DNA from: a virus
DNA length: 29,947 nucleotides
UHGV virus genome: UHGV-0175251
Reading direction: 5' to 3' (one strand)
Shown here piece after piece: positions 729 through 17,379 of this stretch. A model generated the notes under the pieces. It worked only from the letters and a program-made list of their open reading frames with translations, was not told the DNA's origin and made no database searches. Numbering within the stretch: the first letter of the stretch is position 1; each line of letters starts with the position of its first letter. The translations under genes and the position numbers were made by a program.

Positions 729-1277
729 ATGAAGGTTAATAAAAAGAAGCTCGCGGAAATTTTCAACGTGGATCCACGAACGATTGAACGCTGGCAGTCT
801 CAGGGGCTCTCTTGTGTCTCTGGTGGTAGTAAGGGGGTTGAATCTGTATTTGATACCGCCATGGCAATTCAGTGGTATGCGCAGCGCGAAGCCGATATTG
901 AAAACGAAAAACTCCGCAAAGAGACCGAGGATTTGCGTGCGGCTGCGGAATCAGATTTACAACCCGGCACCATTGACTATGAGCGCTACCGACTCACAAA
1001 AGCACAGGCTGATGCACAGGAACTGAAAAATGCCCGCGAAGAAGGGCTGGTACTGGAAACGGAATTGTTTACCTTCATTCTGCAACGTGTGGCACAGGAG
1101 ATTTCGGGGATACTTGTACGTGTGCCGCTGACATTACAGCGTAAATATCCGGATATTTCACCGTCACACCTTGATGTGGTGAAAACTGAAATCGCAAAAG
1201 CCTCCAACGTTGCAGCTAAAGCTGGTGAGAACGTAGGCGGGTGGATTGATGATTTCAGACGCACAGAAGGCAGCTAA
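729..1277 (+). CDS. nu1: terminase small subunit (lambda Nu1 homolog)
   Basis: Translation [26 protein letters not shown]...[29 protein letters not shown] aligns by eye with lambda Nu1 (N-terminal HTH, DLQPGTIEYER motif). ATG at 729; the ORF-track start at 711 is TTG. Overlaps start of A. Confidence 0.9.
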
Positions 1278-3165: not shown

Positions 3166-3168
3166 GTG

Positions 3169-3378
3169 ATGATTTATACGCATGAAATGCTATGCGATGC
3201 CCGCCGGGCGTTACATGAACTGATGATCGGACGTGCTGTGGTTTCCGTCAGCAAGGACGGGCGTCAGGTTCAGTATTCGCGGGCGACAATTGGTGAACTG
3301 CGTCAGTATATTGAAGAGCTGGAAAGTGCGCTGGGTGTATCCGGACGGCGTCGTGGCCCGGCAGGAGTGGGGCTGTGA
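3169..3378 (+). CDS. W: head-tail joining protein (lambda gpW homolog)
   Basis: 69 aa ending RRRGPAGVGL, like lambda gpW (ends RRRGPAGFYV). Sits between A and B as in lambda. Confidence 0.85.
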   Translation: MIYTHEMLCDARRALHELMIGRAVVSVSKDGRQVQYSRATIGELRQYIEELESALGVSGRRRGPAGVGL

Positions 3379-4189
3379 ACGGGGAACTGGTGGATATTCA
3401 TGGGCAGCCTTTACGGCAAAGCATGGGATATTCTGGTGGTGGTTCCGGGTTCGGTGGGCAAATGGCAGAATGGCTGCCTGCACCGGAAAGTGCCGACGTG
3501 GCGCTCTTACCTTCCATTCATCTGGGTAACGCCCGCGCGGATGAGCTGGTCCGTAACAACGGTATTGCATCGAATGCAGTGGAAATTCATAAGGATCATA
3601 TTGTCGGGCACATGTTTCGTCTGAGTTACCGTCCCAACTGGCGCTGGCTGGGGATGTCGGAAGCAGATTCACATGCTTTTATTGAAGATGTTGAGGCGGC
3701 GTGGATGGAATACTGCGATCCGGTGTTTGGTACGATGGATGTGGAAGGGCGTCGTTCGTTTACCGAATTTATTCGTGAAGGGGTGGGGGTCCATACGTTT
3801 AACGGTGAAATTTTTGTCCAGCCCGTATGGGATGCGGAATCCACGTCATTATTCCGGACGAAATTCAAAACCATCAGCCCGAAGCGTGTCAGTACACCCG
3901 GTTATGGTACCGGCGATCGTTTTATGCGTGCCGGGGTGGAAATAAACCGACACGGAAAAGCGCTGGCCTACCATGTTCAGGATGATGACTGGCCCGGCTA
4001 CGGTGTCAGTAAATGGACACGAATTACGGCAACACTGCCTTCCGGACGACCGGGAATGATCCATGTGTTTCAGCCACAGGAAGACGGGCAGACCCGCGGG
4101 GCCAACCAGTTTTATTCTGTAATGGAGCGTCTCAAGATGCTCGACACACTGCAGGCCACGCAACTGCAGTCGGCGGTGGTTCGCGCCAT
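3375..4189 (+). CDS. B: portal protein (lambda gpB homolog), 5' segment; gene interrupted by the insertion at 4190
   Basis: GYSGGGSGFGG, GNARADELVRNNG, FNGEIFVQ and HVFQPQEDGQTRGANQFYSVMERLKMLDTLQATQLQSAVVRA match the lambda portal. Homology stops after codon RA at 4187; the frame then reads 17 unrelated codons to a stop at 4241. GTG start overlapping the W stop. Confidence 0.9.
4183..4189. repeat. left junction 7-bp direct repeat GCGCCAT (candidate attL overlap/core)
   Basis: The same 7 bp recurs at 15010-15016, exactly where portal homology stops and resumes. Flanking bases differ on both sides. Confidence 0.7.
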
Positions 4190-4317
4190 TTATGTCTATT
4201 ATCTCCCCGTAGTTGTCGCCACCATTCATCAACTCCACTAAAACCCTTGATATGTCTGGAATGTCGTTTTTTGTATTTATGATGACCGTTCATTACCTTT
4301 CGTGTTTTTCGCGGTTT

Positions 4318-4371
4318 TGTGTATTGCAATGTGTATTGCAAGTTGGCGTTTGGATGGGGTGTGTATTGCAA
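4318..4371. repeat. integrase arm-type repeats (left arm): three copies of TGTGTATTGCAA
   Basis: TGTGTATTGCAA at 4318-4329, 4330-4341 and 4360-4371. The 19-mer GTATTGCAATGTGTATTGC (4321-4339) is identical to 14916-14934 near the other end. Confidence 0.65.
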
Positions 4372-4390
4372 ATTGACGTGTAGGCTACAT

Positions 4391-5632
4391 ATGGCTATCG
4401 AGAATAAACTGACTGACAAACTTCTGAAAAGTCTTGCAGGTAAGCCGCAGGACAGACAAAAAATCATGGCTGATGGGCGGGGGCTATCTGTTCGTGTAAG
4501 CGTGGTTGGGGGAATTAGTTTCGTTTTTTACTATCGTATTGGCGGCAGGGATGCCCCTCCGGTATGGCTGACCCTTGGGCGTTATCCTGATATGTCTCTG
4601 GCAGCCGCCAGGAGATTACGCGACCAGTGCCGTGAATGGCTGGCGGAAAATCTGGATCCTCGCAGACAAATAAAACTTGTAGCTGAAAAAAACATGCGCC
4701 CTGTAACTGTAAGGGATGCGGTGCTTTACTGGTACGATAATCACGCCAGGACAGCCAGAAAGCAGCATGAGTATTTAATAAAAAGATTTGAAAAGCATAT
4801 TTTTCCATATATCGGAGATATGGCTATAGAACAGTGCAAATTGCATACCTGGCTTACTGTATTTGACAGAATTAAAAAAAATGCTCCTGTTATGTCTGGT
4901 GCTATTTTTCTTGATATTAAACAGGCGTTACGTTTTTGCCGTATCAGGCAATACATTAGTTGCGATCCATTCGGTGATATTAACGTTAGTTATGTTGGAC
5001 GTTCAGCAGGCATAAGGGATCGTGTTCTGAGTATTAATGAAGCCGCTGACGTATGGTCTTATGCCTATGGCAACAATTTACTTACCCTTTCATCAATACA
5101 TAACCGAAGAATTATGGTTATCTGCCTGGTGTTTGGTTGCCGTCAGCAGGAGGCGCGGTTATCCACTTGGGAAGAATGGGATTTAAAAAACTGGATTTGG
5201 ACAGTTCCAAAAGAGCACAGCAAGAACGGCGAGGTTATTGTAAGACCAGTCCCTGATGGAATAAAACAATGGGTTATTAATCTTTATGCGGAAACAAAGC
5301 ACCGGGATTGTGTTATCGGTAGATCACTGAAGCGAGCGACAATAACAGGAGCAGCAAGCCGGATATGCAGGCGGCTAGGGCATGATGTAAATGGTCTGTG
5401 GTGCATACATGATTTCAGGCGTACATTTTCAACAATGCTTAACGATATGGGTGCCGATCCTTATATTGTAGAGCTTCTGCTTGGTCATAAAGTTAAAGGT
5501 GTGGCGGGTGTTTATAATAAAAGCAAGCATGCAAAGAAAAAACTTGAGGTTCTTAATATGTGGGTTAATTACCTTAACACGATAGCCGGATTTAATAATA
5601 ACGTTATTGAACTGAGTAAAGAGGTTGTTTGA
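4391..5632 (+). CDS. int: tyrosine site-specific integrase (P4-type)
   Basis: 413 aa from ATG 4391. N-terminal arm-binding-like region (LTDKLLKSL...GRGLSVRVSVVGGISFVFYYRIGGR...LTLGRYPDMSLAAARR) and C-terminal catalytic motifs (HDFRRTF, LLGHK, VAGVYNK with the tyrosine). Confidence 0.9.
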   Translation: MAIENKLTDKLLKSLAGKPQDRQKIMADGRGLSVRVSVVGGISFVFYYRIGGRDAPPVWLTLGRYPDMSLAAARRLRDQCREWLAENLDPRRQIKLVAEKNMRPVTVRDAVLYWYDNHARTARKQHEYLIKRFEKHIFPYIGDMAIEQCKLHTWLTVFDRIKKNAPVMSGAIFLDIKQALRFCRIRQYISCDPFGDINVSYVGRSAGIRDRVLSINEAADVWSYAYGNNLLTLSSIHNRRIMVICLVFGCRQQEARLSTWEEWDLKNWIWTVPKEHSKNGEVIVRPVPDGIKQWVINLYAETKHRDCVIGRSLKRATITGAASRICRRLGHDVNGLWCIHDFRRTFSTMLNDMGADPYIVELLLGHKVKGVAGVYNKSKHAKKKLEVLNMWVNYLNTIAGFNNNVIELSKEVV

Positions 5633-5633
5633 T

Positions 5634-5891
5634 ATGTCAGTTTATTCACTTGTTGATGAAAAAGATTTTACTGCAATGCCGGATATTGATCGTGTCATTC
5701 GTGAAAAAGAATGCGTGGCACTTACTACGCTGGCAAATTCAACACGCTGGAAACTGGAAAAGACAGGTAAGTTCCCAAAACGTATTAAGATTGGTGAACG
5801 TGCCGCTGGCTATCGTCTCTCGGAGATTCAGGCGTGGATCCGTGGCGATTGGCACCCAGGATGGAAACCGGAAAAAACAAAACAGCAATAA
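5634..5891 (+). CDS. alpA: AlpA-family HTH regulator (possible excisionase)
   Basis: 85 aa, 1 nt after the int stop, GAGG SD. LANSTRWKLEKTGKFPKRIKIGERAAGYRLSEIQAWIR resembles the AlpA family. Confidence 0.7.
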   Translation: MSVYSLVDEKDFTAMPDIDRVIREKECVALTTLANSTRWKLEKTGKFPKRIKIGERAAGYRLSEIQAWIRGDWHPGWKPEKTKQQ

Positions 5892-5907
5892 CCAGGAGAT
5901 AAACACA

Positions 5908-5932
5908 GCCCCGCTCAATGCGGGGTTTTTTG
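5908..5932 (+). terminator. rho-independent terminator after alpA
   Basis: GCCCCGC / TCAAT / GCGGGG hairpin followed by TTTTTT. Confidence 0.75.
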
Positions 5933-5950
5933 TATGTGAGGTAAAAAGCG

Positions 5951-6529
5951 ATGAATAAAAATATTGCCGTGACGGGCAAAGGTGACGCTCGTCTAGTAAA
6001 AAAATTCTGTGATATTCGTGATCTGGTCGTTCTGCGCTTTGATGGTGTGAACGTTCGCGTGGTGTATCTGAACGGCGATCCGTGGTTTGTTGCAGTTGAC
6101 GTGTGCGCTGCGCTGGAAATTGTTGATCACAAGGTTGCGTTACGCCGTCTCGATGATGATGAAAAGGGGGAGTGTTTAATACCCACCCTTGGCGGAAATC
6201 AAACAATGCGAACTGTATGCGAGTCAGGTTTCTACAAACTAATAGCCCGTAGCCGCAAAGCAACGACGCCTGGCACGTTCGCCCATCGTTTCAGTAACTG
6301 GGTATTCAGAAATGTGATACCGGGTATCAGAAAAACGGGGGCTTATGGTATCCCGTGGGGCGCATTACAGGATTTTTCCCGCCGTAAAGAGCAATATCAG
6401 ATAAGTGCCAGCGAGAAGGGGAGGGAGCTACAGGCATGTAAGCGCAAAAAGCGTGAGCTGGAGGAAGAAGAAAAAAGGCTGATACGTGAATATCAGCCTG
6501 AGTTTTACTTTGGTGAGCGTATTCAGTAA
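5951..6529 (+). CDS. Bro-N domain protein (antirepressor-like)
   Basis: 192 aa; N-terminus LRFDGVNVRVVYLNGDPWFVAVDVCAALEI has the Bro-N / phage antirepressor signature; C-terminus charged. GAGGT SD before the ATG. Confidence 0.7.
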   Translation: MNKNIAVTGKGDARLVKKFCDIRDLVVLRFDGVNVRVVYLNGDPWFVAVDVCAALEIVDHKVALRRLDDDEKGECLIPTLGGNQTMRTVCESGFYKLIARSRKATTPGTFAHRFSNWVFRNVIPGIRKTGAYGIPWGALQDFSRRKEQYQISASEKGRELQACKRKKRELEEEEKRLIREYQPEFYFGERIQ

Positions 6530-6810
6530 CCACTCGCAGTGCTGATTATACGGTACATCGTGTTAACCGGGAAGCTACCCACCAGCAAGGCAAAATCTTC
6601 TGCTAAAAAATGATATATGGTCAGCCGTCCGGAAAGCATGAAATTTTACAAAAATGGAAAATGAAGATTTTTATTGTGCTGGTGGGTAAAAACAAAAAGC
6701 GCCCCGTTGCCGGAGCGCCTTTGTGAACAATTAACCTACTGCGCAAAAAATGAATCTGAGCAGTGGGATTATATCAACCGTGTGACGAAGCGCCACAATT
6801 GCCGGATAAC

Positions 6811-6842
6811 AGGCAAAACAAAGGCCACCCGCTACGGTGGCC
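6811..6842 (-). terminator. candidate intrinsic terminator for the leftward small-gene operon
   Basis: GGCCACC / CGCTAC / GGTGGCC perfect 7-bp stem; on the minus strand it is followed by TTTGTTTTG. Confidence 0.5.
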
Positions 6843-6960
6843 CTTCAACACAAGCTACACGTTATCCCCAACGCATGAGCATCACCAACAATGCCACATT
6901 TGCGGCTGGTGGGCAAAGCTTTAGCGGAATTTTTTCCCTGTTGCCTGGAGTGGGTAATGA

Positions 6961-7143
6961 TTACTTGTATCGCTTATTCCTGCACAAAACAGGGCTGCTC
7001 TTTTTGATGAAATCCTCAAGCAAAAAACACTCTGTTGATGCTCTTGGTAATTCTCTGGTGGAAGGATGGGGTTTTATCCCCCATTTTCGTTTACGTTCTT
7101 CCAGAAAGGAGGTGAGTATATCTAGTTTCTGTGCGTCCATCAT
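6961..7143 (-). CDS. hypothetical small protein (60 aa)
   Basis: Third ORF in a leftward series with regular 57-bp spacing; weak SD; no recognisable homology. Confidence 0.3.
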   Translation of the reverse strand: MMDAQKLDILTSFLEERKRKWGIKPHPSTRELPRASTECFLLEDFIKKSSPVLCRNKRYK

Positions 7144-7200
7144 TTTTCTCTTGGATACTTCTTTGTGCCATGGATCCTCACACCACGGCGCTGATAGTGG

Positions 7201-7398
7201 TTATTTCTGCTCTTCAACATCACCATGTCGTGATGTTTTCCAGGTATGCGACCCCATTTTTGTGCGCCTGTACTCTTTTAAGAACTTCTCAAGGCCAAAC
7301 GCACATGGCGCGAATCTCTCCTGTTCTTGTTCGCTTACCGCGTTTTTGCGTTGTTTTTTCCTGGATGAAGATAATTTCTTTAATGATTTGTCAGTCAT
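7201..7398 (-). CDS. hypothetical small basic protein (65 aa)
   Basis: Second ORF of the leftward series (MTDKSLKKLSSSRKKQRKNAV...); no recognisable homology. Confidence 0.35.
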   Translation of the reverse strand: MTDKSLKKLSSSRKKQRKNAVSEQEQERFAPCAFGLEKFLKEYRRTKMGSHTWKTSRHGDVEEQK

Positions 7399-7455
7399 CG
7401 TAGATACCTGTAACCCAGTGCGCCACAGTTCACCGCACCACGGCGCTGGTGATGG

Positions 7456-7635
7456 TTACTCCTGCTCTTTGGCCTTGCGACGCTGGCGGCGTTTGATCTC
7501 GCCTTGCATTGACGCAATGATGAATTGTGATGTGCTTTCGCCTGATTCTTTCACTGATTCCATGGCGTTTACTATTTCGTGTGGTACACGAGCCTTTAGA
7601 GCTTGTGATTTTGCGTTTGTTGTACCCGTTGCCAT
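7456..7635 (-). CDS. putative ribbon-helix-helix DNA-binding protein (candidate repressor)
   Basis: 59 aa from ATG at 7635-7633 with GAGG SD. ALKARVPHEIVNAMESVKE...TSQFIIASMQGEI fits a strand-helix-helix pattern. Transcribed divergently from the rightward operon. Confidence 0.5.
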   Translation of the reverse strand: MATGTTNAKSQALKARVPHEIVNAMESVKESGESTSQFIIASMQGEIKRRQRRKAKEQE

Positions 7636-7639
7636 TTCT

Positions 7640-7740
7640 ATTCCTCTGGTGGATTGGTGGGGAACAGTATACACAGAAAAAACACAAATAAAACTCTTGA
7701 CGTGGACCACACCTAAAACATATAGTGGGCCACACCTTAA
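7640..7740. promoter_or_regulatory. divergent promoter/operator region of the element
   Basis: Rightward TTGACG (7697-7702) and TATAGT (7721-7726), 18-bp spacer. Direct repeats TGGACCACACCT (7703-7714) and TGGGCCACACCT (7725-7736) overlap it. Leftward -10 TATACT on the minus strand around 7657-7662 precedes the RHH gene. Confidence 0.55.
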
Positions 7741-7834
7741 AATTATCAAGGCGCATAAATGCAAAGCCCCGCAAGTGTCGTTACCACTCGCAGGGCTTCT
7801 AACCACCAACGATAGAAAGAGTATCGAGGTAGCT

Positions 7835-8038
7835 ATGAGAAATCATACCACACACCCGCAAGGGCGGGACTCGCACAACCTGAATAAATACATCTGGCGT
7901 TTTATCGCCCTGAGCACGGCACAACCGCGCGTGATTACCATCGAGGCCACCAGCGAACAGGAAGCACGCCAGCAATCTCCGGCTGGCTGCGTGATGGTAT
8001 TCGCCGCCCGTATTCGCCAGGAGGTGCGCCATGATTAA
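7835..8038 (+). CDS. hypothetical protein (possibly Icd-like)
   Basis: 67 aa, first gene after the rightward promoter, GAGG SD. KYIWRFIALSTAQP...FAARIRQEVRH resembles Icd-like proteins of P4-type elements from memory only. Confidence 0.45.
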   Translation: MRNHTTHPQGRDSHNLNKYIWRFIALSTAQPRVITIEATSEQEARQQSPAGCVMVFAARIRQEVRHD

Positions 8039-8243
8039 CCTGTCACTTACCGACCTTAACCGCATTCAGTTTCGTGAGAAATTTACCGGGCAGTTGTTGG
8101 TTAATGTGGATAAAGGTCGCGTGGTGTGTAATTACCACCTGCCAGATGAAGCAATTGTCGCAACAAGGGAATCATTACAGGAACTCGCAGAGCGTGCCGG
8201 AATGATTAACGCGAATATTCAGGGGGTGAGACATGTGCAATAA
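8031..8243 (+). CDS. hypothetical protein (70 aa)
   Basis: ATG overlaps the upstream stop (translational coupling); part of the operon. Confidence 0.45.
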   Translation: MINLSLTDLNRIQFREKFTGQLLVNVDKGRVVCNYHLPDEAIVATRESLQELAERAGMINANIQGVRHVQ

Positions 8244-8496
8244 CCCCCGTCCGGACGCAGCCGCCGAAGCTATCAGAACGCTGATGCACGCGCTGATTGA
8301 TATTTCATGCACGGCAGCAACCGCAGAAAAACACATTACCATAGAGCCGGAATATACAGGGGCAATAATCCCGCATTCGCTGGCATACGCACAGCTTACC
8401 GCTGATATGGCACTGAATGAGGCCAAAGCTATCCTGATTGCTGATTGTGAAAATGGGGGGGGGTGGTTATGCGTGATGATCGTTTTAATGCCCTGA
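8233..8496 (+). CDS. hypothetical protein (87 aa)
   Basis: AGGGGG SD; overlaps neighbours; no recognisable homology. Confidence 0.4.
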   Translation: MCNNPRPDAAAEAIRTLMHALIDISCTAATAEKHITIEPEYTGAIIPHSLAYAQLTADMALNEAKAILIADCENGGGWLCVMIVLMP

Positions 8497-8702
8497 AACA
8501 GGAATTTGATGGCGCACCGGAAGATACAGATATTGCGCTGTTATGTGTTGCTGACATGGTAAAAGCTGCATGTTTTTTACTGGAAACCGCCGAACATTCA
8601 GGAACGGGTAGCGATATTCTCAATATTGCGTCGGACTATGCGGAATATGTGGCAGAGACGCGTTACAGAAGTAAATTCCCGGAGGGGGTGAGCCATGCAT
8701 GA
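8469..8702 (+). CDS. hypothetical protein (77 aa)
   Basis: G-rich SD; first in-frame ATG at 8469 (track start 8463 is GTG). Confidence 0.4.
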   Translation: MRDDRFNALKQEFDGAPEDTDIALLCVADMVKAACFLLETAEHSGTGSDILNIASDYAEYVAETRYRSKFPEGVSHA

Positions 8703-8928
8703 TATTTACAATGACACAGTAGACCATGCATACAGCGCACTTGCTTACAGTGAAAACATGCTTGAAATATTGCGCTTATGGCTTGAAACGCTTGGCGATA
8801 ATGAAAGAGATAAACGCAACAGCAATATTGCAACAGCATTAATAACGCTTCTTGAGCCTGTAATAAATGAACTGCAAGAAATAGACATCTTGCACGACAG
8901 ATATAAAGAGCCACACACCGGAGAATAA
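8695..8928 (+). CDS. hypothetical protein (77 aa)
   Basis: GGAGGGGG SD; start overlaps the upstream stop. Confidence 0.45.
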   Translation: MHDIYNDTVDHAYSALAYSENMLEILRLWLETLGDNERDKRNSNIATALITLLEPVINELQEIDILHDRYKEPHTGE

Positions 8929-8933
8929 AAACC

Positions 8934-9233
8934 ATGAAAAAGAAAAATTCTGGCTTTACTGCCAGCGGCCCCGCTCGGCCTGAAATCCGCCCAGGCGATA
9001 TTTTCCGGGATAACTACGGCGGCACGGTAACGATTAAAAGTATTGCCGGACGGTGCGTTACTTACCGCCGTGATGGGTACAGCTACGACTGCGTGATGCC
9101 TGTTTATCAGTTCCGGCGTGATTTTTCGCTGGTACAGGCCACACCACGCAGACAGCCCACCAGCAACGCAAAGGCACGGGCAAATATTCAGAAAATGAAA
9201 AACATGATTAACGCATTCAGGGGTAAAAAATGA
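8934..9233 (+). CDS. hypothetical protein (99 aa)
   Basis: GGAGAA SD; its stop overlaps the start of the replication gene (ATGA). Confidence 0.45.
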   Translation: MKKKNSGFTASGPARPEIRPGDIFRDNYGGTVTIKSIAGRCVTYRRDGYSYDCVMPVYQFRRDFSLVQATPRRQPTSNAKARANIQKMKNMINAFRGKK

Positions 9234-10645
9234 AACTGGCACCGAACTTAAAAAAACAGCCGCACGACAAAATGACCGAAGTCATTATTTTTGCGGGTAG
9301 TGATGCCTGGGCGCACGCGAAACAGTGGCAGGAACAGGACGGGCGACTTGCTGGCGACAACGTGCCGCCTGTATGGCTTGGAGACAACCAGCTTGACGAA
9401 CTGGCAGACCTGAAAATCATCGATGATGGTCGCTATTGTGTCCGGCTGTACAAGGCAGGCCACATCAAGCCGTCAAATATTAATGCCATCGGGCAAAAGC
9501 TGGCGGCGGCAGGTGTACGGGATGCGAATTATTACCCTGAGGGAATGCACAGCCAGAAGCTGGAGAACTGGCACGACTACCTGCAACGGATCCGCGAACA
9601 GGCAGAGCGCGGGGAAATACTTACTGACGAGCAATACAGCCAGCGAAAAACCACACTACCAATGAGCATTGGGTCCGCAGGATACGACACACAGCTTGAT
9701 TATGTCGTTAAGGGCGTGATTCCGGCTAATTCGTTGTGCAGCACATACGGCGCGAGCGGTTCCTATAAATCGTTCCTCGCGTGTTCCTGGGCGTGTCATG
9801 TTGCCACGGGTCGCCACTGGGGAGGCCGCAGGGTGGCGCATGGTTCGGTGATGTATGTTGTCGGTGAAGGGGGTATAGGTGTCCCCCGCCGTATCAAGGC
9901 ATGGGAAATCGTTAATGATGAACGGGTGGAAAATTTGTACCTGGTAAACCGCCCGATTTTTCCGGCTGTCCCGCTTGATGTTGATGAAATGGTTATCGCG
10001 TCCCGCCAGGTTGAACGGGAAACGGGTAAACCGGTACGCATGATTATTCTGGATACGCTGGCGCGTTGCTTTGGTGGTAATGATGAAAATGACGCGCGGG
10101 ATATGGGGGCGTTTATCCGTGGATGTGACGAACTGAAACGACGCACAGGGGCCACGGTGCTGGTGGTTCACCATTCCGGCAAGGATGAAACAAAGGGGGC
10201 ACGTGGTTCCAGTGCATTTCGTGCATCTCTGGACGCTGAATACCGTATTCGCCGTGAAGGTGCGGACAGTGAAGCCCTGGTTATCTCCTGCACCAAAATG
10301 AAGGACGCGGAGGAACTGAAAGAGGCTGCATATGATTTACGCGTGGTGGAGCTTTTTACCGACGCTGACAAGGAGTTAATCACGTCGCTGGTGGTTGTGG
10401 ATAAGCCGCGCCCACCAGTTGAACTGGAGCGCATCGAGGAAGCCGGGAACAAGACGGAGAATCACGCCGCGCTATGGGGCTGTATCCGTTCACGCACACA
10501 GCGCGGCGATAAATGCACTATCCCGTTATTGCGTGATGATATGAAAAAGCTGGGGTATGAGATGAAGCACTTTAGTCGCTGGTTACGCAAGCTGGAAAGT
10601 GACGACGTAATCGCTATTGACGGCGATGATGTTCACCCGATGTAA
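9230..10645 (+). CDS. replication initiator / RepA-like (AAA_25-type) helicase
   Basis: 471 aa. Deviant Walker A GASGSYKS, Walker B-like RMIILDTLARCF and VLVVHHSGKDETKG motif typical of RepA-like RecA-fold helicases. Iterons immediately downstream. Primase activity cannot be judged from sequence alone. Confidence 0.7.
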   Translation: MKLAPNLKKQPHDKMTEVIIFAGSDAWAHAKQWQEQDGRLAGDNVPPVWLGDNQLDELADLKIIDDGRYCVRLYKAGHIKPSNINAIGQKLAAAGVRDANYYPEGMHSQKLENWHDYLQRIREQAERGEILTDEQYSQRKTTLPMSIGSAGYDTQLDYVVKGVIPANSLCSTYGASGSYKSFLACSWACHVATGRHWGGRRVAHGSVMYVVGEGGIGVPRRIKAWEIVNDERVENLYLVNRPIFPAVPLDVDEMVIASRQVERETGKPVRMIILDTLARCFGGNDENDARDMGAFIRGCDELKRRTGATVLVVHHSGKDETKGARGSSAFRASLDAEYRIRREGADSEALVISCTKMKDAEELKEAAYDLRVVELFTDADKELITSLVVVDKPRPPVELERIEEAGNKTENHAALWGCIRSRTQRGDKCTIPLLRDDMKKLGYEMKHFSRWLRKLESDDVIAIDGDDVHPM

Positions 10646-10850
10646 AAAGTGGGGAACAAAAGTGGGGAGAGTGGGGAATTTAACAAAAAATCAACGTTAC
10701 TCCCCACTTTCCCACCTGTATATACCCAAAAAAGTGGGGAGTAAAAAACACATTGAAAAACATCACGTTAGAATCACAAAAAAACGAGGTGGGGAGCAAG
10801 TGGGGAATTTTAAAAAGTGGGGAACAAAAGTGGGGAGTGGTGGGGAATGA
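10646..10850. repeat. iteron array: about 10 copies of GTGGGGA (candidate ori)
   Basis: GTGGGGA at 10649, 10662, 10671, 10734, 10789, 10800, 10817, 10830, 10840 and inverted (TCCCCAC) at 10701, set in A-rich DNA directly after the rep stop. Confidence 0.75.
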
Positions 10851-11098
10851 ACAGAAAAACCAGAGATAAAACAGTGCCAAAATATCGCGCATTAGACATG
10901 ACAGAGCACGCCTTAAAGGTGGCAATCAGAACGATAGACCGCCACGCCGGGGAAGGATACGCGAAAGCACATCCCGAACTGATAAGCGCATTCATGGCCA
11001 CGACGGCGGCAAACTTTGCCACGCTGACAGAACGGGAGATTGCCGAAGCGGAACAGGTGACAACCATCAACGTTAAAACCGGAGAGCAAACAGCATGA
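10847..11098 (+). CDS. hypothetical protein (83 aa)
   Basis: ATG at 10847 at the end of the iterons; overlaps the SSB start. Confidence 0.4.
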   Translation: MNRKTRDKTVPKYRALDMTEHALKVAIRTIDRHAGEGYAKAHPELISAFMATTAANFATLTEREIAEAEQVTTINVKTGEQTA

Positions 11099-11517
11099 CA
11101 GCACAGATAGCGGCTTACGGGCGGCTGGTGGCTGACCCACAGTTAAAGACCACCAGCAAAGGGACACAAATGGCGATGGCGAGTATGGCGGTTCCCCTGC
11201 CGTGCAGCCAAGCAGATGACGGAACGGCGACGATGTGGTTATCCGTCCTGGCGTTTGGCAGACAGGCCGACGCACTGGCAAAACACCACAAAGGCGAACT
11301 GGTGAGCGTGGCGGGTAACATGCAGGTAAGCCAGTGGACAGGCCAGAACGGCGAAACGCGGCAGGGCTGGCAGGTTATCGCAGACAGCGTAATCAGTGCC
11401 AGAACGGCGCGACCGGGCGGCAAAAAAGGCCAGCAGGGCCAGGCTACTGACGCACTGAACAGGGCAAAACAACAGGCGGGAAATGATGATCCGTACTGGG
11501 ATAACATACCGTTTTAA
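11095..11517 (+). CDS. ssb: single-stranded DNA-binding protein
   Basis: 140 aa with OB-fold-like pattern (GRLVADPQL...W.SV.AFG..A..L.KH.KGELVSVAG...W....G..R....V) and an acidic C-terminal tip ...DPYWDNIPF resembling the E. coli SSB DDDIPF tail. Confidence 0.65.
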   Translation: MTAQIAAYGRLVADPQLKTTSKGTQMAMASMAVPLPCSQADDGTATMWLSVLAFGRQADALAKHHKGELVSVAGNMQVSQWTGQNGETRQGWQVIADSVISARTARPGGKKGQQGQATDALNRAKQQAGNDDPYWDNIPF

Positions 11518-11533
11518 GCAACGAGTGACAGAA

Positions 11534-11597
11534 GCCGGGATTTTTCCCGGCTTTTTTGTGCGCAAAAAAAATCCCCCGGGATGAGGTTCCGGGGGAT
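11534..11597. terminator. pair of hairpins: + strand terminator (11534-11558) and a minus-oriented one (11571-11597)
   Basis: GCCGGGA / TTTTT / TCCCGGC then TTTTTT; followed by AAAAAAAA, ATCCCCCGG / 9-nt loop / CCGGGGGAT. Confidence 0.7.
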
Positions 11598-11674
11598 TTC
11601 ACGCCGCTAACGTGATTAGCGCTGAATGACTCTGTGGTACAAGGAGTAAAACCACGGCATCATGATTTCATGAT

Positions 11675-11723
11675 TTGCAACAACAGTCAATGTCATTGCA
11701 AAAAATGCAATGATAATTAAAAT
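11675..11723 (+). promoter_or_regulatory. candidate promoter with overlapping palindromic operator for the capsid module
   Basis: TTGCAA (11696-11701), 16-bp spacer, TAAAAT (11718-11723). Perfect palindrome CATTGCA-AAAAA-TGCAATG (11694-11712) overlaps the -35. Confidence 0.45.
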
Positions 11724-11775
11724 CATGAATGACTTTTCGTTATGTTTATTTTTTAGTCAAAGAGGAATCTCATTT

Positions 11776-11982
11776 ATGGGAACACAGAAGCCGGGCGGTG
11801 TATCCGTGTACATCAGCCCCGATATTATCGCCGCACTTAATGCGCGCTTTGAGGAGAACGCAGAGGCAGGAAAAAAAATCGGCCTTGATCCGTTGTGCCT
11901 GGTGAAGCCGTCAGTCGGCTGGATGGTACGCAGCCATTTACGCGCTGCGCTTGGTATGAATCAGCCTCATGGGGGTGAGTAA
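11776..11982 (+). CDS. hypothetical small protein, possibly ribbon-helix-helix
   Basis: 68 aa, AAGAGG SD. VSVYISPDIIAALNARFEENAEAGKK...WMVRSHLRAAL is compatible with an RHH fold. Stop overlaps the capsid-homolog start. Confidence 0.4.
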   Translation: MGTQKPGGVSVYISPDIIAALNARFEENAEAGKKIGLDPLCLVKPSVGWMVRSHLRAALGMNQPHGGE

Positions 11983-13037
11983 TGACAGCGCCGCAACTGG
12001 TAAGCACACCAACGCTACTGAAAAATATCGGGCGCGAAGATGTGCCGGAATTTAAATTTAATCCACTCTTTACTACGTTGTTCTTTCCGAACGTCGCTAC
12101 TTTCAGCACCAGAGATATTGCACTTGATACGCTGGATATTGAAAACGTGGTCATGAGTCCGTTTTGTTCTCCAATGTCAGGCAGCCAGGTTATGCGTGAC
12201 AAAGGTTTCACAACGAACACGTTCACGCCGGGTTATATGAAGCCCAAACACGTTATTGATCCCACCAAAACAATCATGCGCATGGCTGGAGAACAGATCG
12301 GCAATGGTCAGTCTTCCCCGGCACTACGCCGCGTAAAAATGGTTCACGACAGCCAGAAAAAACAGCTTGCTGCCATCAAAGCGCGTGTTGAATGGCTGGC
12401 GGTCAATGCCATCACAACAGGCCGTAACGTTATTGAAGGCGAAGGCATTGAGCGTTATGAAATTGACTGGGGATTACCCGCAACCAATCATATTACGCAG
12501 GCTGGCGGGAAAGAATGGTCAAAACAGGATGCCGAAACGTTTGATCCGATAAGCGACATTGAGGCTTACGCTGATTTTTCCAAAGGTACGGTAAATATTA
12601 TCGTCATGGGTGGCGAAGCCTGGCGTATTTTGCGCTCGTTCCGTCGATTCCGCGAACTCCTGGACACGCGTCGCGGTTCAAACTCGTCACTTGAACTTGC
12701 GCTAAAAGATTTGGGCGGCGTTGTCAGCTTCAAGGGGTATCTCGGTGATGTGGCGCTCGTGGTTTATTCCGGTCGTTATGACGACGAATACGGGCAGCAG
12801 CAATATTTCCTGAAACAAAACATGCTGGTTTTCGGCAATACCGAAAATAAAGGCCTTGTTGCTTATGGTGCCATCATGGATCAGGACGCGGCACGCGAGG
12901 GGTTTTCTGAGGGGATGTACTACCCGAAAAATTATATCGTACCTGGCGATCCGGCGATTGAATACGTGCAGACGCACAGCGCCCCGCAGCCAGTACCCGT
13001 GGATATTGGTCGCTTTGTTACCGTCGAAGTGAAATAA
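11982..13037 (+). CDS. major capsid protein homolog (lambda gpE-like), element-encoded
   Basis: 351 aa. Shares FTPGY.KPKH, NITQAGG[KR]EWSKQ[DN]A[ED]TFDP, REKLDTRRGS, ALKDLG.VVSFKGY, GNT...G..YGAI.D and YPK motifs with the prophage E protein (17825-18853) and with lambda gpE. Confidence 0.9.
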   Translation: MTAPQLVSTPTLLKNIGREDVPEFKFNPLFTTLFFPNVATFSTRDIALDTLDIENVVMSPFCSPMSGSQVMRDKGFTTNTFTPGYMKPKHVIDPTKTIMRMAGEQIGNGQSSPALRRVKMVHDSQKKQLAAIKARVEWLAVNAITTGRNVIEGEGIERYEIDWGLPATNHITQAGGKEWSKQDAETFDPISDIEAYADFSKGTVNIIVMGGEAWRILRSFRRFRELLDTRRGSNSSLELALKDLGGVVSFKGYLGDVALVVYSGRYDDEYGQQQYFLKQNMLVFGNTENKGLVAYGAIMDQDAAREGFSEGMYYPKNYIVPGDPAIEYVQTHSAPQPVPVDIGRFVTVEVK

Positions 13038-13047
13038 AGGGGATCGT

Positions 13048-13377
13048 ATGCCAACACCTTACACGCAATTCCTTTCCGGCACGCAGGAACTGGTCAGCAC
13101 GCTGGCCTGTTTTGCCAGTGCCGGAGAAATTAAAGCGAGAACTCCGCTGATGCAGAACGGCGCGGGCCTGATGGTTGAGTGGGACGGTACACCCGGTAAG
13201 GCGGTGTATCTGACCATATCGGACATTAACACGGCCACAAAAAACCGCGCACAGGTTTATAAGTGCGGGGTTTTTAATATCGATGAAATTAACTGGCCTG
13301 ATACAGCGGACACGTTCGAGAAAAAAGTGTCGGCTTTTGTTGGTTCCGGTATTTCCGTGCAGCCTTTAGGGCAATAA
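13048..13377 (+). CDS. head decoration protein homolog (lambda gpD-like), element-encoded
   Basis: 109 aa directly after the capsid homolog. TPLM, WDG and AFVGSGIS motifs shared with the prophage D (17420-17755). Confidence 0.7.
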   Translation: MPTPYTQFLSGTQELVSTLACFASAGEIKARTPLMQNGAGLMVEWDGTPGKAVYLTISDINTATKNRAQVYKCGVFNIDEINWPDTADTFEKKVSAFVGSGISVQPLGQ

Positions 13378-13391
13378 TTTTGTGGTGATTT

Positions 13392-13817
13392 ATGACTGAG
13401 AAAGCAAATTCAACCAGAGCATTGATCATGGCACTGCCTGAGGCGCAGAAATACCCGACGCTTGCGGAAAATCTCGCAAATAATGGCGCATCACTGACAG
13501 AAGCCCGAACGGTGCTTACTGCAAAGGCTGAGAGTGATAAACAGCGCATAGAGGGTATCAAGGCGTTACCGCTGGCATCAAAATACCCTGAGTTCACCAG
13601 TAAGCTGATTGAGTGTGGTTCTGAAGTAATGACAGTAACCTATGCACAAACGTTACTGGCTGCCGTGGATGCCCAGGCAATGATGCAGGAAAAGAAAACG
13701 GCTTTTCTGTTTGAAGCGTACATGGAAAAGCACAGCCCGAAATGTGTTGGATCAGCAGCCGGTGATGGCAACGCCGGACTGACCGAAGATGAAAAGCTGT
13801 TGCTGTCTGTTAAGTAA
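13392..13817 (+). CDS. scaffold-like protein (Nu3-like repeats), element-encoded
   Basis: 141 aa. Two repeat-like units (ALPEAQKYPTLAENL..., ALPLASKYPEFTSKL...) and C-terminus TAFLFEAYMEKH...GDGNAGLTEDEKLL resemble the repeat unit and C-terminus of the prophage C/Nu3 (...VTLFERFMAQH...GTAGNGEEELL). Confidence 0.6.
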   Translation: MTEKANSTRALIMALPEAQKYPTLAENLANNGASLTEARTVLTAKAESDKQRIEGIKALPLASKYPEFTSKLIECGSEVMTVTYAQTLLAAVDAQAMMQEKKTAFLFEAYMEKHSPKCVGSAAGDGNAGLTEDEKLLLSVK

Positions 13818-13830
13818 CTGAAATGAACGT

Positions 13831-13863
13831 TCGCGAGGCTGGCAAGGTCTCGCGATTTTTTTT
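13831..13863 (+). terminator. rho-independent terminator after the capsid module
   Basis: TCGCGAG / 11-nt loop / CTCGCGA followed by eight Ts. Confidence 0.8.
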
Positions 13864-13896
13864 GTATCCGTAACGGTGGTGATCGCCCCAATTTTC

Positions 13897-13975
13897 ACGG
13901 GTCCTTTCCAGAACCAGAAACACCGCGGGGCGGCAGACGCGCAAAAAAGCGCTATTTATGACGCTTTCCGGGAAA
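13897..13975 (+). promoter_or_regulatory. element-borne cos site
   Basis: ACGGGTCCTTTCC (13897-13909), GGGGCGGCAG (13927-13936) and GCTATTTATGA (13951-13961) reproduce the prophage cos motifs at 509/540/564 with nearly identical spacing (30 vs 31 and 24 vs 24 nt). Flanking sequence differs. Confidence 0.75.
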
Positions 13976-14028
13976 GGGTACACCACCACCACTTGATTAA
14001 TATTTAATCGCATTATTAAGGTAACGTT

Positions 14029-14469
14029 ATGAATAATAAAGATTGTTTTGTTAGTCAGCAGGAAATAGCAGAACATTTCAAGGTCAACAGAACCACTATT
14101 CGCGCATGGACCAAACAGGGCATGCCGTATCTTGATGCGGATCGCGGAAAGTCCGGCGGTTATCACATCGGACACACATTATTCTGGTGCATGGGTAAAA
14201 GTCATCTTGATGCTATTGAGTACCACGGAGAAACCAGCGCACTGGAAAAGATTATGGTTGCCAGGTTGATTTCATTAGAGCGCGACGAGTATTTCAGTGA
14301 AGAAACAGAACAGCGATTTGATAATGGTCTGCAGATTTACGGGTACTCGCCGGAAGATGTGAGCAAGGCACGAAATAAAATGGCTGGCTTTCTGGCTGGG
14401 TGGCGTCATGCCGTAGCCGTTCGCCGTGAGCATCTGCAACAATCTGTAGTTACAGAGCAGGAAAACTAA
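14029..14469 (+). CDS. small terminase-like protein (Nu1-like N-terminal HTH)
   Basis: 146 aa just downstream of the element cos. N-terminus VSQQEIAEHFKVNRTTIRAWTKQGMPYLDADRGKSGG parallels Nu1 ([24 protein letters not shown]...GGSKG). The C-terminal half is unrelated to Nu1. Confidence 0.65.
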   Translation: MNNKDCFVSQQEIAEHFKVNRTTIRAWTKQGMPYLDADRGKSGGYHIGHTLFWCMGKSHLDAIEYHGETSALEKIMVARLISLERDEYFSEETEQRFDNGLQIYGYSPEDVSKARNKMAGFLAGWRHAVAVRREHLQQSVVTEQEN

Positions 14470-14476
14470 TAAGTAT

Positions 14477-14573
14477 GCAATACAACAACCGCGTATTTTT
14501 GTTAAACCATTTGATTTAATTGGCATTTTTGGAGCCATAACATCAAAAAAACACCCTCAGGTTGTTGTATTGC
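14477..14573. repeat. 14-bp perfect inverted repeat GCAATACAACAACC / GGTTGTTGTATTGC separated by 69 bp
   Basis: 14477-14490 and 14560-14573; contains the GTATTGC motif also present in the arm-type repeats. Confidence 0.5.
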
Positions 14574-14751
14574 TTTCAGTTTTCTCTTAGTTATCAAATG
14601 GATATAACAAACAATTAAACAACAACCACCCCCTCAAAAAATCTCATAAACAGCGCGTTTTTGCGCGTATGGCTACCCCCGGTGTTTTATTTTCCAGGAA
14701 GGACCCGCCACAATTACGGCATTGTTTTCCATCACCACGGAGGCCATGACA

Positions 14752-14937
14752 ATGACCGAAGCCGAAATGCTCAAAATGATTCGCCGCGTTACCGGATCCA
14801 GCAAGACAGCAGGCAAACAGGAGACCACGCAGCCGGACAGCGTGATAGCCGAAAATTACGCGCGTGTGGTGGCTGAGGTGATGCGCCGTGACGGTATTCA
14901 CAAGCAACAATTTGCGTATTGCAATGTGTATTGCTAA
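14752..14937 (+). CDS. hypothetical small protein (about 61 aa)
   Basis: GGAGG SD at 14739-14743; the 3' end runs into the arm-type repeats. Coding status uncertain. Confidence 0.3.
   Translation: MTEAEMLKMIRRVTGSSKTAGKQETTQPDSVIAENYARVVAEVMRRDGIHKQQFAYCNVYC
14913..14936. repeat. integrase arm-type repeats (right arm)
   Basis: TGCGTATTGCAA + TGTGTATTGCTA; the 19-mer GTATTGCAATGTGTATTGC at 14916-14934 is identical to 4321-4339. Confidence 0.65.
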
Positions 14938-15009
14938 CCCTCCAAACGGGGGAAATATGCAAACATAACATATTGTTTTGTCTTTTTATTTTTTCGTATC
15001 TTTTCATAA

Positions 15010-15016
15010 GCGCCAT
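15010..15016. repeat. right junction 7-bp direct repeat GCGCCAT (candidate attR overlap/core)
   Basis: Identical to 4183-4189; portal homology resumes exactly here. Confidence 0.7.
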
Positions 15017-15773
15017 GTATGCCGCCACGATTGAATCCACACTGGATTCGGAAAAAGCGTTTGAATATATCGCCGGGGTGGGAGATGGAGGTAAAAATCC
15101 CCTGAACACCATCATGAAAGGCTACGCGCGTTATTACGCCACCAATACGGTAAAACTGGGCGGGGTCCGTATTCCGCATCTTTACCCGGGAGATTCACTG
15201 AATCTGCAGACAGCCCAGAATGCGGATAATGGTTTTTCTGAACTGGAAAAGGCGCTGTTACGTTACATTGCTGCCGGACTGGGTGTGTCGTATGAGCAGC
15301 TTTCCCGGGATTATTCACAGGTCAGTTATTCCAGTGCCAGGGCATCCGCCAATGAGTCGTGGCGGTATTTTATGGGAAAACGAAAATTTGTGGCCAGTCG
15401 CCTGGCGTCACAGATGTTTGCCTGCTGGCTGGAGGAAGCCCTTATTCGTGGTGTGATCCGTCCGCCGAAATCCCGTTTCTCATTCTGGGAGGCTCGTTCC
15501 GGGTGGTGCCGTGCCGAGTGGATTGGTGCCGGTCGTATGGCGATTGATGGCCTTAAGGAAGTGCAGGAAGCGGTGATGCGCATTGAAGGCGGCCTGAGTA
15601 CATACGAGAAAGAGCTGGCCCTGATGGGGGATGACTATCAGGAGATTTTCCGCCAGCAGCTACGGGAAACTCAGGAGCGACAGGCTGCCGGTCTTCCGCG
15701 TCCGGTCTGGATAAAGAACGCGTTTCAACAGCAGATCCGACAGACAACGGGAGAAAAAGGCGATGCGCTGTAA
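15017..15773 (+). CDS. B: portal protein (lambda gpB homolog), 3' segment
   Basis: (S)AMYAATIES..., GVRIPHLYPGDSLNLQTAQNADNGF, LLRYIAAGLGVSYEQLSRDYSQVSYSSARASANESW and GRMAIDGLKEVQEAVM match the C-terminal half of the lambda portal. Joined to 3375-4189 it gives a continuous 523-codon ORF. Confidence 0.9.
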
Positions 15774-17379
15774 TTTATCACATATTGCCGCGATGGCATT
15801 TAATGAGCCGCTTTTACTGGAACCCGCCTATGCGCGGGTTTTCTTTTGCGCACTGGGTAAGGAGATGGGGGCGGGCAACCTTGCCGTTCCGCAGCAGGCC
15901 GTTCAGCTTGATGCCGATGGTATGCAGCTGGCGGTTACCGATTATATGACTGGTGGTCCGCGTCCGGTAAAGAGTTACCAGGTGAAAAATGGTATTGCCA
16001 TTCTGCCGGTGAGCGGCACGTTGGTACATAAAATGGGTACCCTGCGGCCATATTCCGGTATGACCGGTTATGACGGTCTGACTGCCCGTCTTAAGTCAGC
16101 GGTGAACGACCCGGATGTACGCGGCATTTTACTGGATATCGACAGTCCGGGTGGTCAGGCTGCCGGGGCGTTTGACTGTGCTGACATGATTTACCGTCTG
16201 CGGGAACAGAAGCCCGTGTGGGCGCTGTGTAATGACATGGCCTGTTCAGCCGCCATGTTGCTGGCGGCGGCCTGTACGCGTCGGCTGGTCACGCAGACGG
16301 CAAAAATTGGTTCGATTGGTGTGATGATGGCGCACACCAGTTACGAGAAACAACTGGCACAGGAAGGCGTGGATATCACGCTGATTTACTCCGGGCAGCA
16401 CAAGGTTGACGGCAACAGTATTCAGGCGTTGCCGACAGGTGTGCGTGCGGATTTTCAGCGCCGTATTGATGAGGCCCGCCGGATGTTTGTCGACAAGGTG
16501 GCGCTTTATACGGGGCTGAGTTCAGAGGCGGTGATGAATACCGAGGCTGCCGTTTATGACGGTCAGGCAGGCATTGATATAGGCCTGGCTGATCAACTGA
16601 TTAATGCTGCAGATGCCGTTGATGTAATGGTTTCTGCTCTGAACGACTCTGTTACACAGGAGAATACGATGACAACAAAAAATCTCACCGTTGCTGAAGC
16701 GGTGTCCCAGGAAAATCAGCGCGTGATGGGGATCCTGAATTGTCAGGAGGCGAAAGGACGCGAAAAACTGGCGCAGATGCTGGCAGGTCAGCAGGGAATG
16801 TCAGTTGAGCAGGCAAAAACATTACTGGCGGCAGCACCGGTTGCCGGTACTGACAGCACAGGCGATCAGATTATGGCACTTCTGGAAGCAAAAGGGCGTG
16901 AACAACTGGCACGGACGCTGGCTGAACAGCCGGGAATGACGGTGGAGCAGGCGAAAACGTTACTGGCAGCGGCACCGGTTTCCGGTGCGGCAAGTACCGG
17001 CGAGCAGATTATGGCACTTCCGGAAGCAAAAGGGCGTGAACAACTCGCACAGGCGCTGGCTGAACAGCCGGGAATGACGGTGGAACAGGCGAAAATGCTA
17101 CTGGTAGCGGCACCGGCAACCGGTACGGCAAGTACCGGCGATCAAATTATTGCGTTGCCGGAAGCAAAAGGACGCGAAAAACTGGCACAGGCGCTGGCTG
17201 AACAACCTGGAATGACAGTGGAGCAGGCGAAAACGCTGCTGGCAGCTGCGCCATCAGTATCGCAACCGTCACAGGTAACACTTTTTGAGCGCTTCATGGC
17301 ACAGCATGCCGCCAGTGCCGTTTCCGGTGGCGGAACTGCCGGGAACGGGGAAGAAGAACTGCTGATGAGTATGCCGTAA
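15763..17379 (+). CDS. C: head protease/scaffold fusion protein (lambda gpC homolog)
   Basis: 538 aa. N-terminus HIAAMAFNEPLLLEPAYARVFFCAL and ILPVSGTL, PYSGMTGY, GILLDIDSPGG, GSIGVMMAH, ITLIYSGQHKVDGN match gpC. C-terminal part contains tandem scaffold repeats. Confidence 0.9.
   Translation: MRCNLSHIAAMAFNEPLLLEPAYARVFFCALGKEMGAGNLAVPQQAVQLDADGMQLAVTDYMTGGPRPVKSYQVKNGIAILPVSGTLVHKMGTLRPYSGMTGYDGLTARLKSAVNDPDVRGILLDIDSPGGQAAGAFDCADMIYRLREQKPVWALCNDMACSAAMLLAAACTRRLVTQTAKIGSIGVMMAHTSYEKQLAQEGVDITLIYSGQHKVDGNSIQALPTGVRADFQRRIDEARRMFVDKVALYTGLSSEAVMNTEAAVYDGQAGIDIGLADQLINAADAVDVMVSALNDSVTQENTMTTKNLTVAEAVSQENQRVMGILNCQEAKGREKLAQMLAGQQGMSVEQAKTLLAAAPVAGTDSTGDQIMALLEAKGREQLARTLAEQPGMTVEQAKTLLAAAPVSGAASTGEQIMALPEAKGREQLAQALAEQPGMTVEQAKMLLVAAPATGTASTGDQIIALPEAKGREKLAQALAEQPGMTVEQAKTLLAAAPSVSQPSQVTLFERFMAQHAASAVSGGGTAGNGEEELLMSMP
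16669..17379 (+). CDS. nu3: scaffold protein (Nu3-like), nested in frame in the 3' part of C
   Basis: Internal ATG at 16669 preceded by AGGAG; product carries the repeats and the GILNCQEA motif conserved with lambda Nu3. Nested start is by analogy with lambda. Confidence 0.5.
   Translation: MTTKNLTVAEAVSQENQRVMGILNCQEAKGREKLAQMLAGQQGMSVEQAKTLLAAAPVAGTDSTGDQIMALLEAKGREQLARTLAEQPGMTVEQAKTLLAAAPVSGAASTGEQIMALPEAKGREQLAQALAEQPGMTVEQAKMLLVAAPATGTASTGDQIIALPEAKGREKLAQALAEQPGMTVEQAKTLLAAAPSVSQPSQVTLFERFMAQHAASAVSGGGTAGNGEEELLMSMP
16747..17275 (+). repeat. four tandem 138-bp (46-aa) repeats within C/Nu3
   Basis: Protein repeats EAKGRE[KQ]LAQ.LAEQPGMTVEQAKTLLAAAP..G.ASTGDQIMALP occur four times (last truncated); nucleotide units begin near 16747, 16885, 17023 and 17161. 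Confidence 0.8.

Follow-up and report, generated by a model that had tools for sequence, protein, structure and literature searches.

The window analysed here, the whole 29,947-nucleotide stretch of the UHGV virus genome UHGV-0175251, contains the late genes of a lambdoid prophage similar to phage 21, and the portal gene of this prophage is split by a 10.8-kb element. The features of the resident prophage were as follows:

510-605 (+), prophage cos, with a cosQ-like sequence at 510-521, the cohesive end GGGCGGCAGCGG at 541-552, CGCTATTTATGA at 563-574 and a phage-21-type R3 at 590-605
729-1277 (+), resident Nu1/TerS gene of the phage-21 type (PF07471, E 2e-83), the presumed binding target of RppB (see below)
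1246-3165, gpA
3166-3378, W
3375-4241, N-terminal half of the portal gene (Pfam Phage_portal_2 positions 2-242)
about 15006-15773, C-terminal half of the portal gene (Phage_portal_2 positions 235-353)
3' of the portal gene, in order, the genes for the S49 protease/scaffold, D, E and the tail genes H, M, L, K and I, then J
from 27566, J, which runs past the end of the window

The DNA from the prophage cos through Nu1 was 88% identical to that of phage 21, and R3 and Nu1 were both of the phage-21 type. A truncated prophage remnant, considered while no ORF had been listed for J, was rejected on the position of this gene, which exits the window. The prophage S49 protease/scaffold gene carried, at 16743-17252, 3-4 tandem 138-nt (46-codon) repeats that were 78-85% identical.

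The following features were assigned to the element:

4183-15021 (+), helper-embedded PICI with a 12-bp att identity block at either end (4183-4194 and 15010-15021)
4391-5632, tyrosine integrase gene int
5634-5891, alpA, identical to the PF05930-positive gene of comparison locus L006
5951-6529, Bro-N protein
within the element, DUF4222 protein
9230-10645, RepA-like helicase
11095-11517, SSB
11982-13037, gpE-like capsid protein
13048-13377, gpD-like decoration protein
13392-13817, scaffold-like gene (141 aa)

With int-alpA and replication modules, no lysis or tail genes and a length of 10.8 kb (range 10-20 kb), the element had the gene content of a PICI. The portal gene was split at the 12-bp att block GCGCCAT[T/G]TATG, and in-silico excision at this block yielded a 523-codon portal ORF that was 96% identical to the intact portal of another prophage. 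The same prophage is present in Escherichia coli VG35A2, where its portal is uninterrupted and the arms (99.9% and 99.2% identical to those of the window) meet exactly at the att block. A doubled tgTGTATTGCantgTGTATTGCa motif flanked the att sites (4318-4341 and 14913-14936), with an extra single copy from 4363. Overall, the element resembled the group described by Tommasini, Mageeney & Williams in 2023 under the site B:Phage_portal_2:240-243 (PMC10111431); the insertion at about positions 235-242 of the portal profile, the co-orientation with the late operon, the doubled TGTATTGC on both sides of attP and the int-alpA, Bro, replication and late zones were all shared by the element. The main text of that study mentions Rpp zero times, while the element studied here carries RppB (see below).

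Several side observations were made within the element. The 141-aa scaffold-like protein shared 36% identity with the scaffold portion at the C-terminus of the prophage S49 protease/scaffold, and the capsid, decoration and scaffold-like trio (11982-13817) was also present in EcCICFT073; according to the literature, the PICI capsid gene is dispensable for transfer. For the 454-codon ORF at 6674-8038, only the last 82 residues matched phrog_6196 (labelled as a transcriptional repressor), and neighbouring records annotate an Icd-like protein in this region; the upstream 370 codons, with internal repeats and an unusual skew, are probably not a real gene. The att core GCGCCATTTATGT (4183-4195) resembled the cos motif GCGCTATTTATGA with two mismatches, probably by coincidence. 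Rfam searches of the window at gathering thresholds returned nothing, including the C4/isrK-type immunity RNAs described for some islands of this kind. None of the eight element ORFs submitted to PADLOC was assigned to a defence system.

The cos sites of the prophage and the element

Downstream of the scaffold-like gene, the element carried a compact set of packaging signals and one gene:

13831-13865 (+), terminator-like hairpin with a 10-bp stem followed by a T8 run, after the scaffold-like gene and directly 5' of cos1
13897-13909 (+), cosQ-like ACGGGTCCTTTCC of cos1, holding the 7-mer GGGTCCT that is the annotated cosQ of phage 21
13928-13939 (+), predicted 12-nt cohesive end and cosN core GGGCGGCAGACG, placed by alignment in register with phage 21 and lambda
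13950-13961 (+), conserved CGCTATTTATGA (bp 23-34 from the predicted cohesive end), at the same position in the prophage, phage 21 and EcCICFT073
13975-13992 (+), cosB-PICI with the proposed R3-PICI AGGGTACACCACCACCAC (bp 48-65), identical to EcCICFT073 cos1 at 16/18 and to the prophage R3 at 2/18 positions
14029-14469 (+), rppB (146 aa), assigned by homology to Rpp proteins
14709->14644 (-), cos2, with a cosQ-like sequence at 14707->14696, cosN-like GGTAGCCATACG at 14677->14666 and GCGCTGTTTATGA at 14656->14644

A sequence-only reading of this DNA had proposed that the cosQ-like, cosN-like and CGCTATTTATGA motifs of the prophage cos recur on the element. We confirmed this recurrence (510-605 in the prophage, 13897-13992 in the element) and found the motifs in the same 63-nt register, the span from GGGTCC to TATGA being 63 nt in the prophage (512-574), in cos1 (13899-13961) and in the inverted cos2 (14706->14644). 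When the window was searched with up to one mismatch, CGGGTCCTTNCC occurred only at 511 (+), 13898 (+) and 14696 (-), and three hits were obtained in none of 100 shuffles. Similarly, GCGCTATTTATGA matched at 562, 13949 and 14644 (-), with two further two-mismatch matches that correspond to chance level, and exact matches to CGGGGCGGCAG were restricted to 539 and 13926. Since position 541 of the window aligned with bp 1 of the phage 21 record, where the annotated cohesive end starts, bp 1 of the element corresponds to 13928; the cohesive ends, previously placed at 13927-13940, were therefore corrected to a predicted 13928-13939. In cos1, cosQ and the nine 5'-most bases of cosN were intact, as were bp 23-34 and the subsite spacing; the site had the helper-like cosQ and cosN at lambda-like spacing that characterize a PICI cos1.

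The claim that the DNA equivalent to cosB differs downstream was borne out as well. Between the prophage and the element, identity fell from 10/12 at bp 1-12 and 16/22 at bp 13-34 to 2/18 in the R3 segment (bp 48-65), and the corresponding values for the prophage and phage 21 were 8/12, 20/22 and 17/18. Compared to EcCICFT073 cos1, the element was identical at 8/12, 15/22 and 16/18 positions of the same segments and at 28/36 positions of bp 66-101. A PICI-specific cosB was present, bp 55-63 (ACCACCACC) and the cosB core ACACCACCACCACTTGATTAATATTTAA being identical in the element and EcCICFT073 cos1. In EcCICFT073, cosB is the part of cos1 that confers RppA-dependent transfer (PMC6739421), and Murialdo & Feiss proposed the R3-like site at bp 48-65 as the Rpp target (PMC9026076). 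Counted from the predicted cohesive end, the rpp ATG was located at bp 102, which is likewise where rpp starts in PICI-C (PMC9026076). Similar to lambda and phage 21, in which the gpNu1 gene directly follows cos, the element has a winged-HTH gene directly after cos and a cosB element at bp 48-65 from the nick; in contrast to the lambda/21 cosB, a single R-like site with another DNA specificity was found and R2/R1 repeats were not seen. The 11capE island also differs from the element, as a 258-bp region of 11capE is 90% identical to its helper at both cos (PMC10111431), whereas the R3 segment of the element shared only the 2/18 positions with its carrier. An inverted repeat flanking cos1 (GGTGGTG/CACCACC, at 13876 and 13982) was considered as a pair of Rpp sites and dropped, as it was not present in EcCICFT073.

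In addition, we identified a third cos-like site that was absent from the earlier reading, the degenerate cos2 on the minus strand 3' of rppB. Its cosN-like GGTAGCCATACG matched cos1 cosN at 8/12 positions (our count). The layout of cos1 (+), rpp and cos2 (-) was the same as in EcCICFT073 (locus L004, 11949-12012 and 12759->12696), and the two islands shared the whole order of capsid gene, decoration gene, 141-aa gene, cos1, rpp, cos2 and a small ORF. They differed in that both cos of EcCICFT073 have GGGCGGCGACCT, the lambda-type cohesive end, compared to GGGCGGCAGACG in cos1 and the degenerate cos2 of the element, and in that EcCICFT073 is chromosomal, lies between roxA and phoQ and uses a different integrase, while the element resides inside a prophage portal gene. 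The cos2 of EcCICFT073 is dispensable for transfer (PMC6739421). The cosB side of cos2 in the window (14709->14540) was homologous to the cosB of an island in E. coli CFSAN064035 (locus L003, 13713-13858) that precedes a full-length satellite TerS, and the alignment suggests that cos2 is a relic of a different, second packaging specificity.

The cohesive end GGGCGGCGACCT is common to lambda, phage 21 and EcCICFT073, and that of cos1 differed from the lambda and EcCICFT073 sequence at four of 12 positions and from the resident prophage at two. Nicking of the cos1 cosN by the gpA of this helper is thus assumed. Could the module have decayed, so that cos1 is no longer cut after drift of cosN and the element is not packaged from it, even if RppB may still interfere with phages? 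Besides these mismatches and the clear degeneracy of the adjoining cos2, such a reading could draw on an embedded satellite at a related capsid-gene site that gave no plaque-forming units upon induction, in an assay that is blind to satellite transfer (PMC10111431). However, the 901-bp segment spanning cos1, rppB and cos2 (13860-14760) differed at only 0-2 positions from ten independent genomes, the cos1 subsites and their spacing were intact as described above, and cosN varies naturally among lambda-like phages (the topic of a cited study). We consider decay of the module improbable.

Conversely, the cohesive end of cos1 might have diverged on purpose, with the divergence of cosN acting besides cosB and Rpp to separate packaging of the embedded satellite from that of its carrier, a speculative idea to which we give a small chance. 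Like the GGGCGGCAGCGG of the carrier, and unlike the lambda, phage 21 and EcCICFT073 type, GGGCGGCAGACG begins with an unusual GGGCGGCAG, and the two differ among their last three bases (two mismatches). If the idea held, the shared GGGCGGCAG would keep cos1 cuttable by the gpA of this helper, and the differences in the last three bases would leave a molecule running from cos1 to the prophage cos (co-oriented and 13.4 kb apart), or the reverse, with non-complementary ends. A strict co-variation of cosN between satellite and carrier was not consistent with the islands compared, which matched their carriers at 12/12 (CFSAN064035), 10/12 (this window) and 7/12 positions (E. coli TUM9812, our count). 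At least three cohesive-end variants other than the lambda type were observed in the family, GGGCGGCAGCGG in the resident prophage, GGGCGGCAGACG in the satellite and GGTCTGGGGACG in the TUM9812 prophage (locus L002, 2656-2718; the register is our own reading), and the right flank CGCAAAAAAG of the satellite was closer to the TUM9812 prophage than to its own carrier.

The gene downstream of cos1

The ORF at 14029-14469 had been described as a small terminase with a Nu1-like HTH at its N-terminus and an unrelated C-terminus. This division of the protein was confirmed, as BLASTP against the resident Nu1 aligned residues 8-52 only (31% identity, E 2e-4); the label was not, because the ORF, about 35 residues shorter than TerS, encodes RppB, which is a TerS mimic rather than a terminase subunit. 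The Pfam profile Phage_Nu1 (PF07471) matched residues 8-37 with E 0.037 and 14.1 bits (cut-off 30), covering profile positions 3-32 of 164, and PHROG 57 (small terminase) covered residues 2-46 only. The ORF did not qualify as a full-length member of the Nu1 family (PF07471), and the C-terminal part had no BLASTP match to the resident Nu1.

In contrast to these partial matches, the ORF aligned to the solved structures of RppC (6HLK and 6HN7) over residues 1-135 with E 4.8e-34, and 120 of its 146 residues (82%) were identical to RppA (c1503 from E. coli CFT073), a value close to the 82.64% reported between RppA and RppB by Fillol-Salom and colleagues in 2019 (PMC6739421). Of the RppB sequence printed in the supplement of that study, available to us as OCR text, 142/146 residues agreed with the ORF; the four differences fall in stretches in which the RppA row of the OCR text also errs (at least five positions compared to the true sequence), and look like OCR noise. 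The length of 146 aa given for RppB by Murialdo & Feiss (PMC9026076) is also that of the ORF. Based on this agreement, we take the ORF to be RppB or a protein within a few residues of it. Compared to the published cos-rpp module of 'PICI-B' (PMC6739421, PMC9026076), with at least 142/146 identical residues, a protein of 146 aa and the same cos-rpp organisation, a substantive difference was not found.

Residues with assigned functions were retained: the proposed DNA-reading residues R21, T22, R25, K29 and K41, which were invariant in the Rpp alignment, L51 of the TerS interface and F121 for dimerisation (RppA numbering). R30 of RppC was replaced by Q in the ORF, as in RppA, and K39 of RppC by R. 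Relative to RppC, crystallised alone (6HLK) and with lambda TerS 1-98 (6HN7), identity was 42% across the whole ORF with the DNA-reading and interface residues conserved, whereas the dimer-interface residues were poorly conserved and RppC is longer (153 aa compared to 146 aa); RppA and RppC do not cross-dimerise (PMC6739421). An AlphaFold2 single-sequence model of the ORF (mean pLDDT 47.8, HTH region below 50) was too poor to bear on the fold, and the homology to 6HLK was used as structural support instead, from which we infer a winged-HTH fold. The interval from the upstream terminator to the rpp ATG yielded no sigma-70-like promoter. Expression of rppB may rely on an AlpA-driven operon of the island or on antiterminated late transcription of the helper, the latter having been suggested for embedded islands by Tommasini et al. 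(PMC10111431).

The Nu1-like HTH and the Nu1-like position relative to cos might also be expected of a true satellite small terminase that binds cosB and recruits the TerL of the helper directly, as the TerS of SaPIs does, and the CFSAN064035 sibling in fact carries a 180-aa Nu1-family TerS at the same position that may recruit TerL in this way. However, the ORF has 146 aa compared to the 182 aa of Nu1, its Phage_Nu1 match is below threshold and limited to residues 8-37, and its C-terminus is unlike Nu1. Moreover, it is RppB; elements with Rpp still need the helper TerS for transfer, and Murialdo & Feiss argue that Rpps lack a conserved TerL-binding domain (PMC9026076). This makes a genuine satellite terminase very unlikely here. 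An ordinary MerR/excisionase-type HTH regulator lying near cos incidentally would agree with weak Pfam matches of the ORF to HTH_17, MerR_1 and HTH_36 (E 0.001-0.014) and with its public names 'hypothetical' and 'helix-turn-helix domain-containing', but can be dismissed almost completely: these matches are all under the curated cut-offs and far weaker than the full-length Rpp match, the distance from cos to ATG is fixed and common to other Rpp islands, and RppB has been published as blocking lambda and phi80 from its expression alone.

Proposed packaging redirection and distribution of the module

Taken together, 13897-14469 very probably represents the packaging module, cos1 with rppB, of a cos-type PICI of Gram-negative bacteria, which here lies within the portal gene of a lambdoid prophage similar to phage 21. 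The proposal that such a configuration redirects the helper terminase to the cos of the element itself is supported, as Rpp proteins have been shown experimentally to act in this way in the cos PICIs of Gram-negative hosts (PMC6739421, PMC9026076). The helper gpA, previously named as the partner to be tested, was the wrong one: the documented partner is TerS (gpNu1).

Published experiments define the individual steps. RppA, RppB and RppC each block lambda and phi80 when expressed alone (PMC6739421), and TerS binding together with a block of phage packaging has been published for RppA, RppB, RppC and RppG against lambda and phi80. Transfer of EcCICFT073 needs RppA as well as the helper TerS, and TerS escape mutants without Rpp binding transfer the island poorly (PMC6739421). 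In the crystal of RppC with TerS(1-98), the winged-HTH of Rpp stands in for the second DNA-binding domain of TerS; RppA raises the transfer of a cos1 plasmid and lowers that of a phage-cos plasmid, and the RppA R21A/T22A mutant keeps the phage block and loses the promotion of island packaging (PMC6739421). Packaging promotion has been demonstrated for RppA only, RppB having been shown only to block lambda and phi80 (PMC9026076). Murialdo & Feiss further propose that TerS is retained in the complex to bring TerL, and state that Rpps interact with 21-type TerS (PMC9026076).

Drawing on these experiments with the homologues RppA and RppC, we propose the following sequence of events. RppB would dimerise through its C-terminal helices, and its N-terminal winged-HTH, mimicking the DNA-binding domain of TerS, would pair with the helper TerS; compared to the lambda and phage 21 gpNu1, RppB has no TerS-like C-terminal half, and it would form a heterodimer with TerS instead of replacing it. 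The hybrid DNA-binding unit would fail on the R sites of the phage, blocking helper packaging, and would recognise the cosB of the satellite (ACACCACCACC...). TerS would still recruit TerL (gpA), which would nick the satellite cosN at the predicted 13928-13939, so that satellite concatemers would be packaged into helper-built particles, with cosQ serving termination. The nick positions, the binding of RppB to the resident TerS and the activity of the module in this strain are our predictions from homology. The resident Nu1 matched the TerS(1-98) fragment of lambda in the RppC co-crystal (6HN7) with E 1.4e-37, and 49/54 residues were identical to the TerS DNA-binding domain structure 7LWR (our count from the alignment). 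It also keeps V3, Y50, A55, E65, D68 and R70, the wild-type residues at the positions at which escape mutations in TerS abolish Rpp sensitivity (PMC6739421). Given the match and these retained residues, binding of RppB to the resident Nu1 is plausible.

The exact protein of the window was found on 249 contigs. The portal-embedded arrangement was the same in nine of the ten contexts shown, and the composite of prophage and element occurred at 98-99% identity over 20 kb in many E. coli genomes. RppB-type modules were also present elsewhere, in an island adjoining tRNA-Pro near yejM and in an island inside a gpA terminase gene, and both VG35A2 and C311 combine the same prophage cos type with a separate RppB-type island that is unembedded and lies at another chromosomal position. 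In TUM9812, a closely related RppB island with a different integrase (L002, 3392-15929) lies within the large-terminase gene (gpA) of another prophage. When one genome per species was searched for Rpp relatives, a single distant match was obtained, in a Dokdonella MAG (36% identity), and the phage collection contained no rppB-like DNA, as expected for a satellite gene.

The sibling island of CFSAN064035 (L003, 13683-14400) shares the insertion gene and the gene order with the element. Its cosQ and cosN are those of its carrier (cosN 12/12, bp 13-34 22/22) and its cosB diverges (R3 segment 8/18); in place of Rpp, it carries the full-length 180-aa Nu1-family TerS, 37% identical to the carrier TerS.

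The module has already been described in the literature, as have the Rpp mechanism (2019) and islands of this kind embedded in the late genes of prophages (2023). Nevertheless, a tool-free reading of the sequence recovered a real and subtle hijack, consisting of a satellite cos and a TerS mimic, and a protein labelled as hypothetical or HTH in public records can now be named RppB on the 249 contigs. A minor new point concerns the strategies of the embedded islands themselves: the TerS of the CFSAN064035 island represents a second natural route to packaging redirection, and the portal-embedded element with Rpp and a PICI-type cosB and its sibling with a full TerS thus provide two natural solutions to compare.
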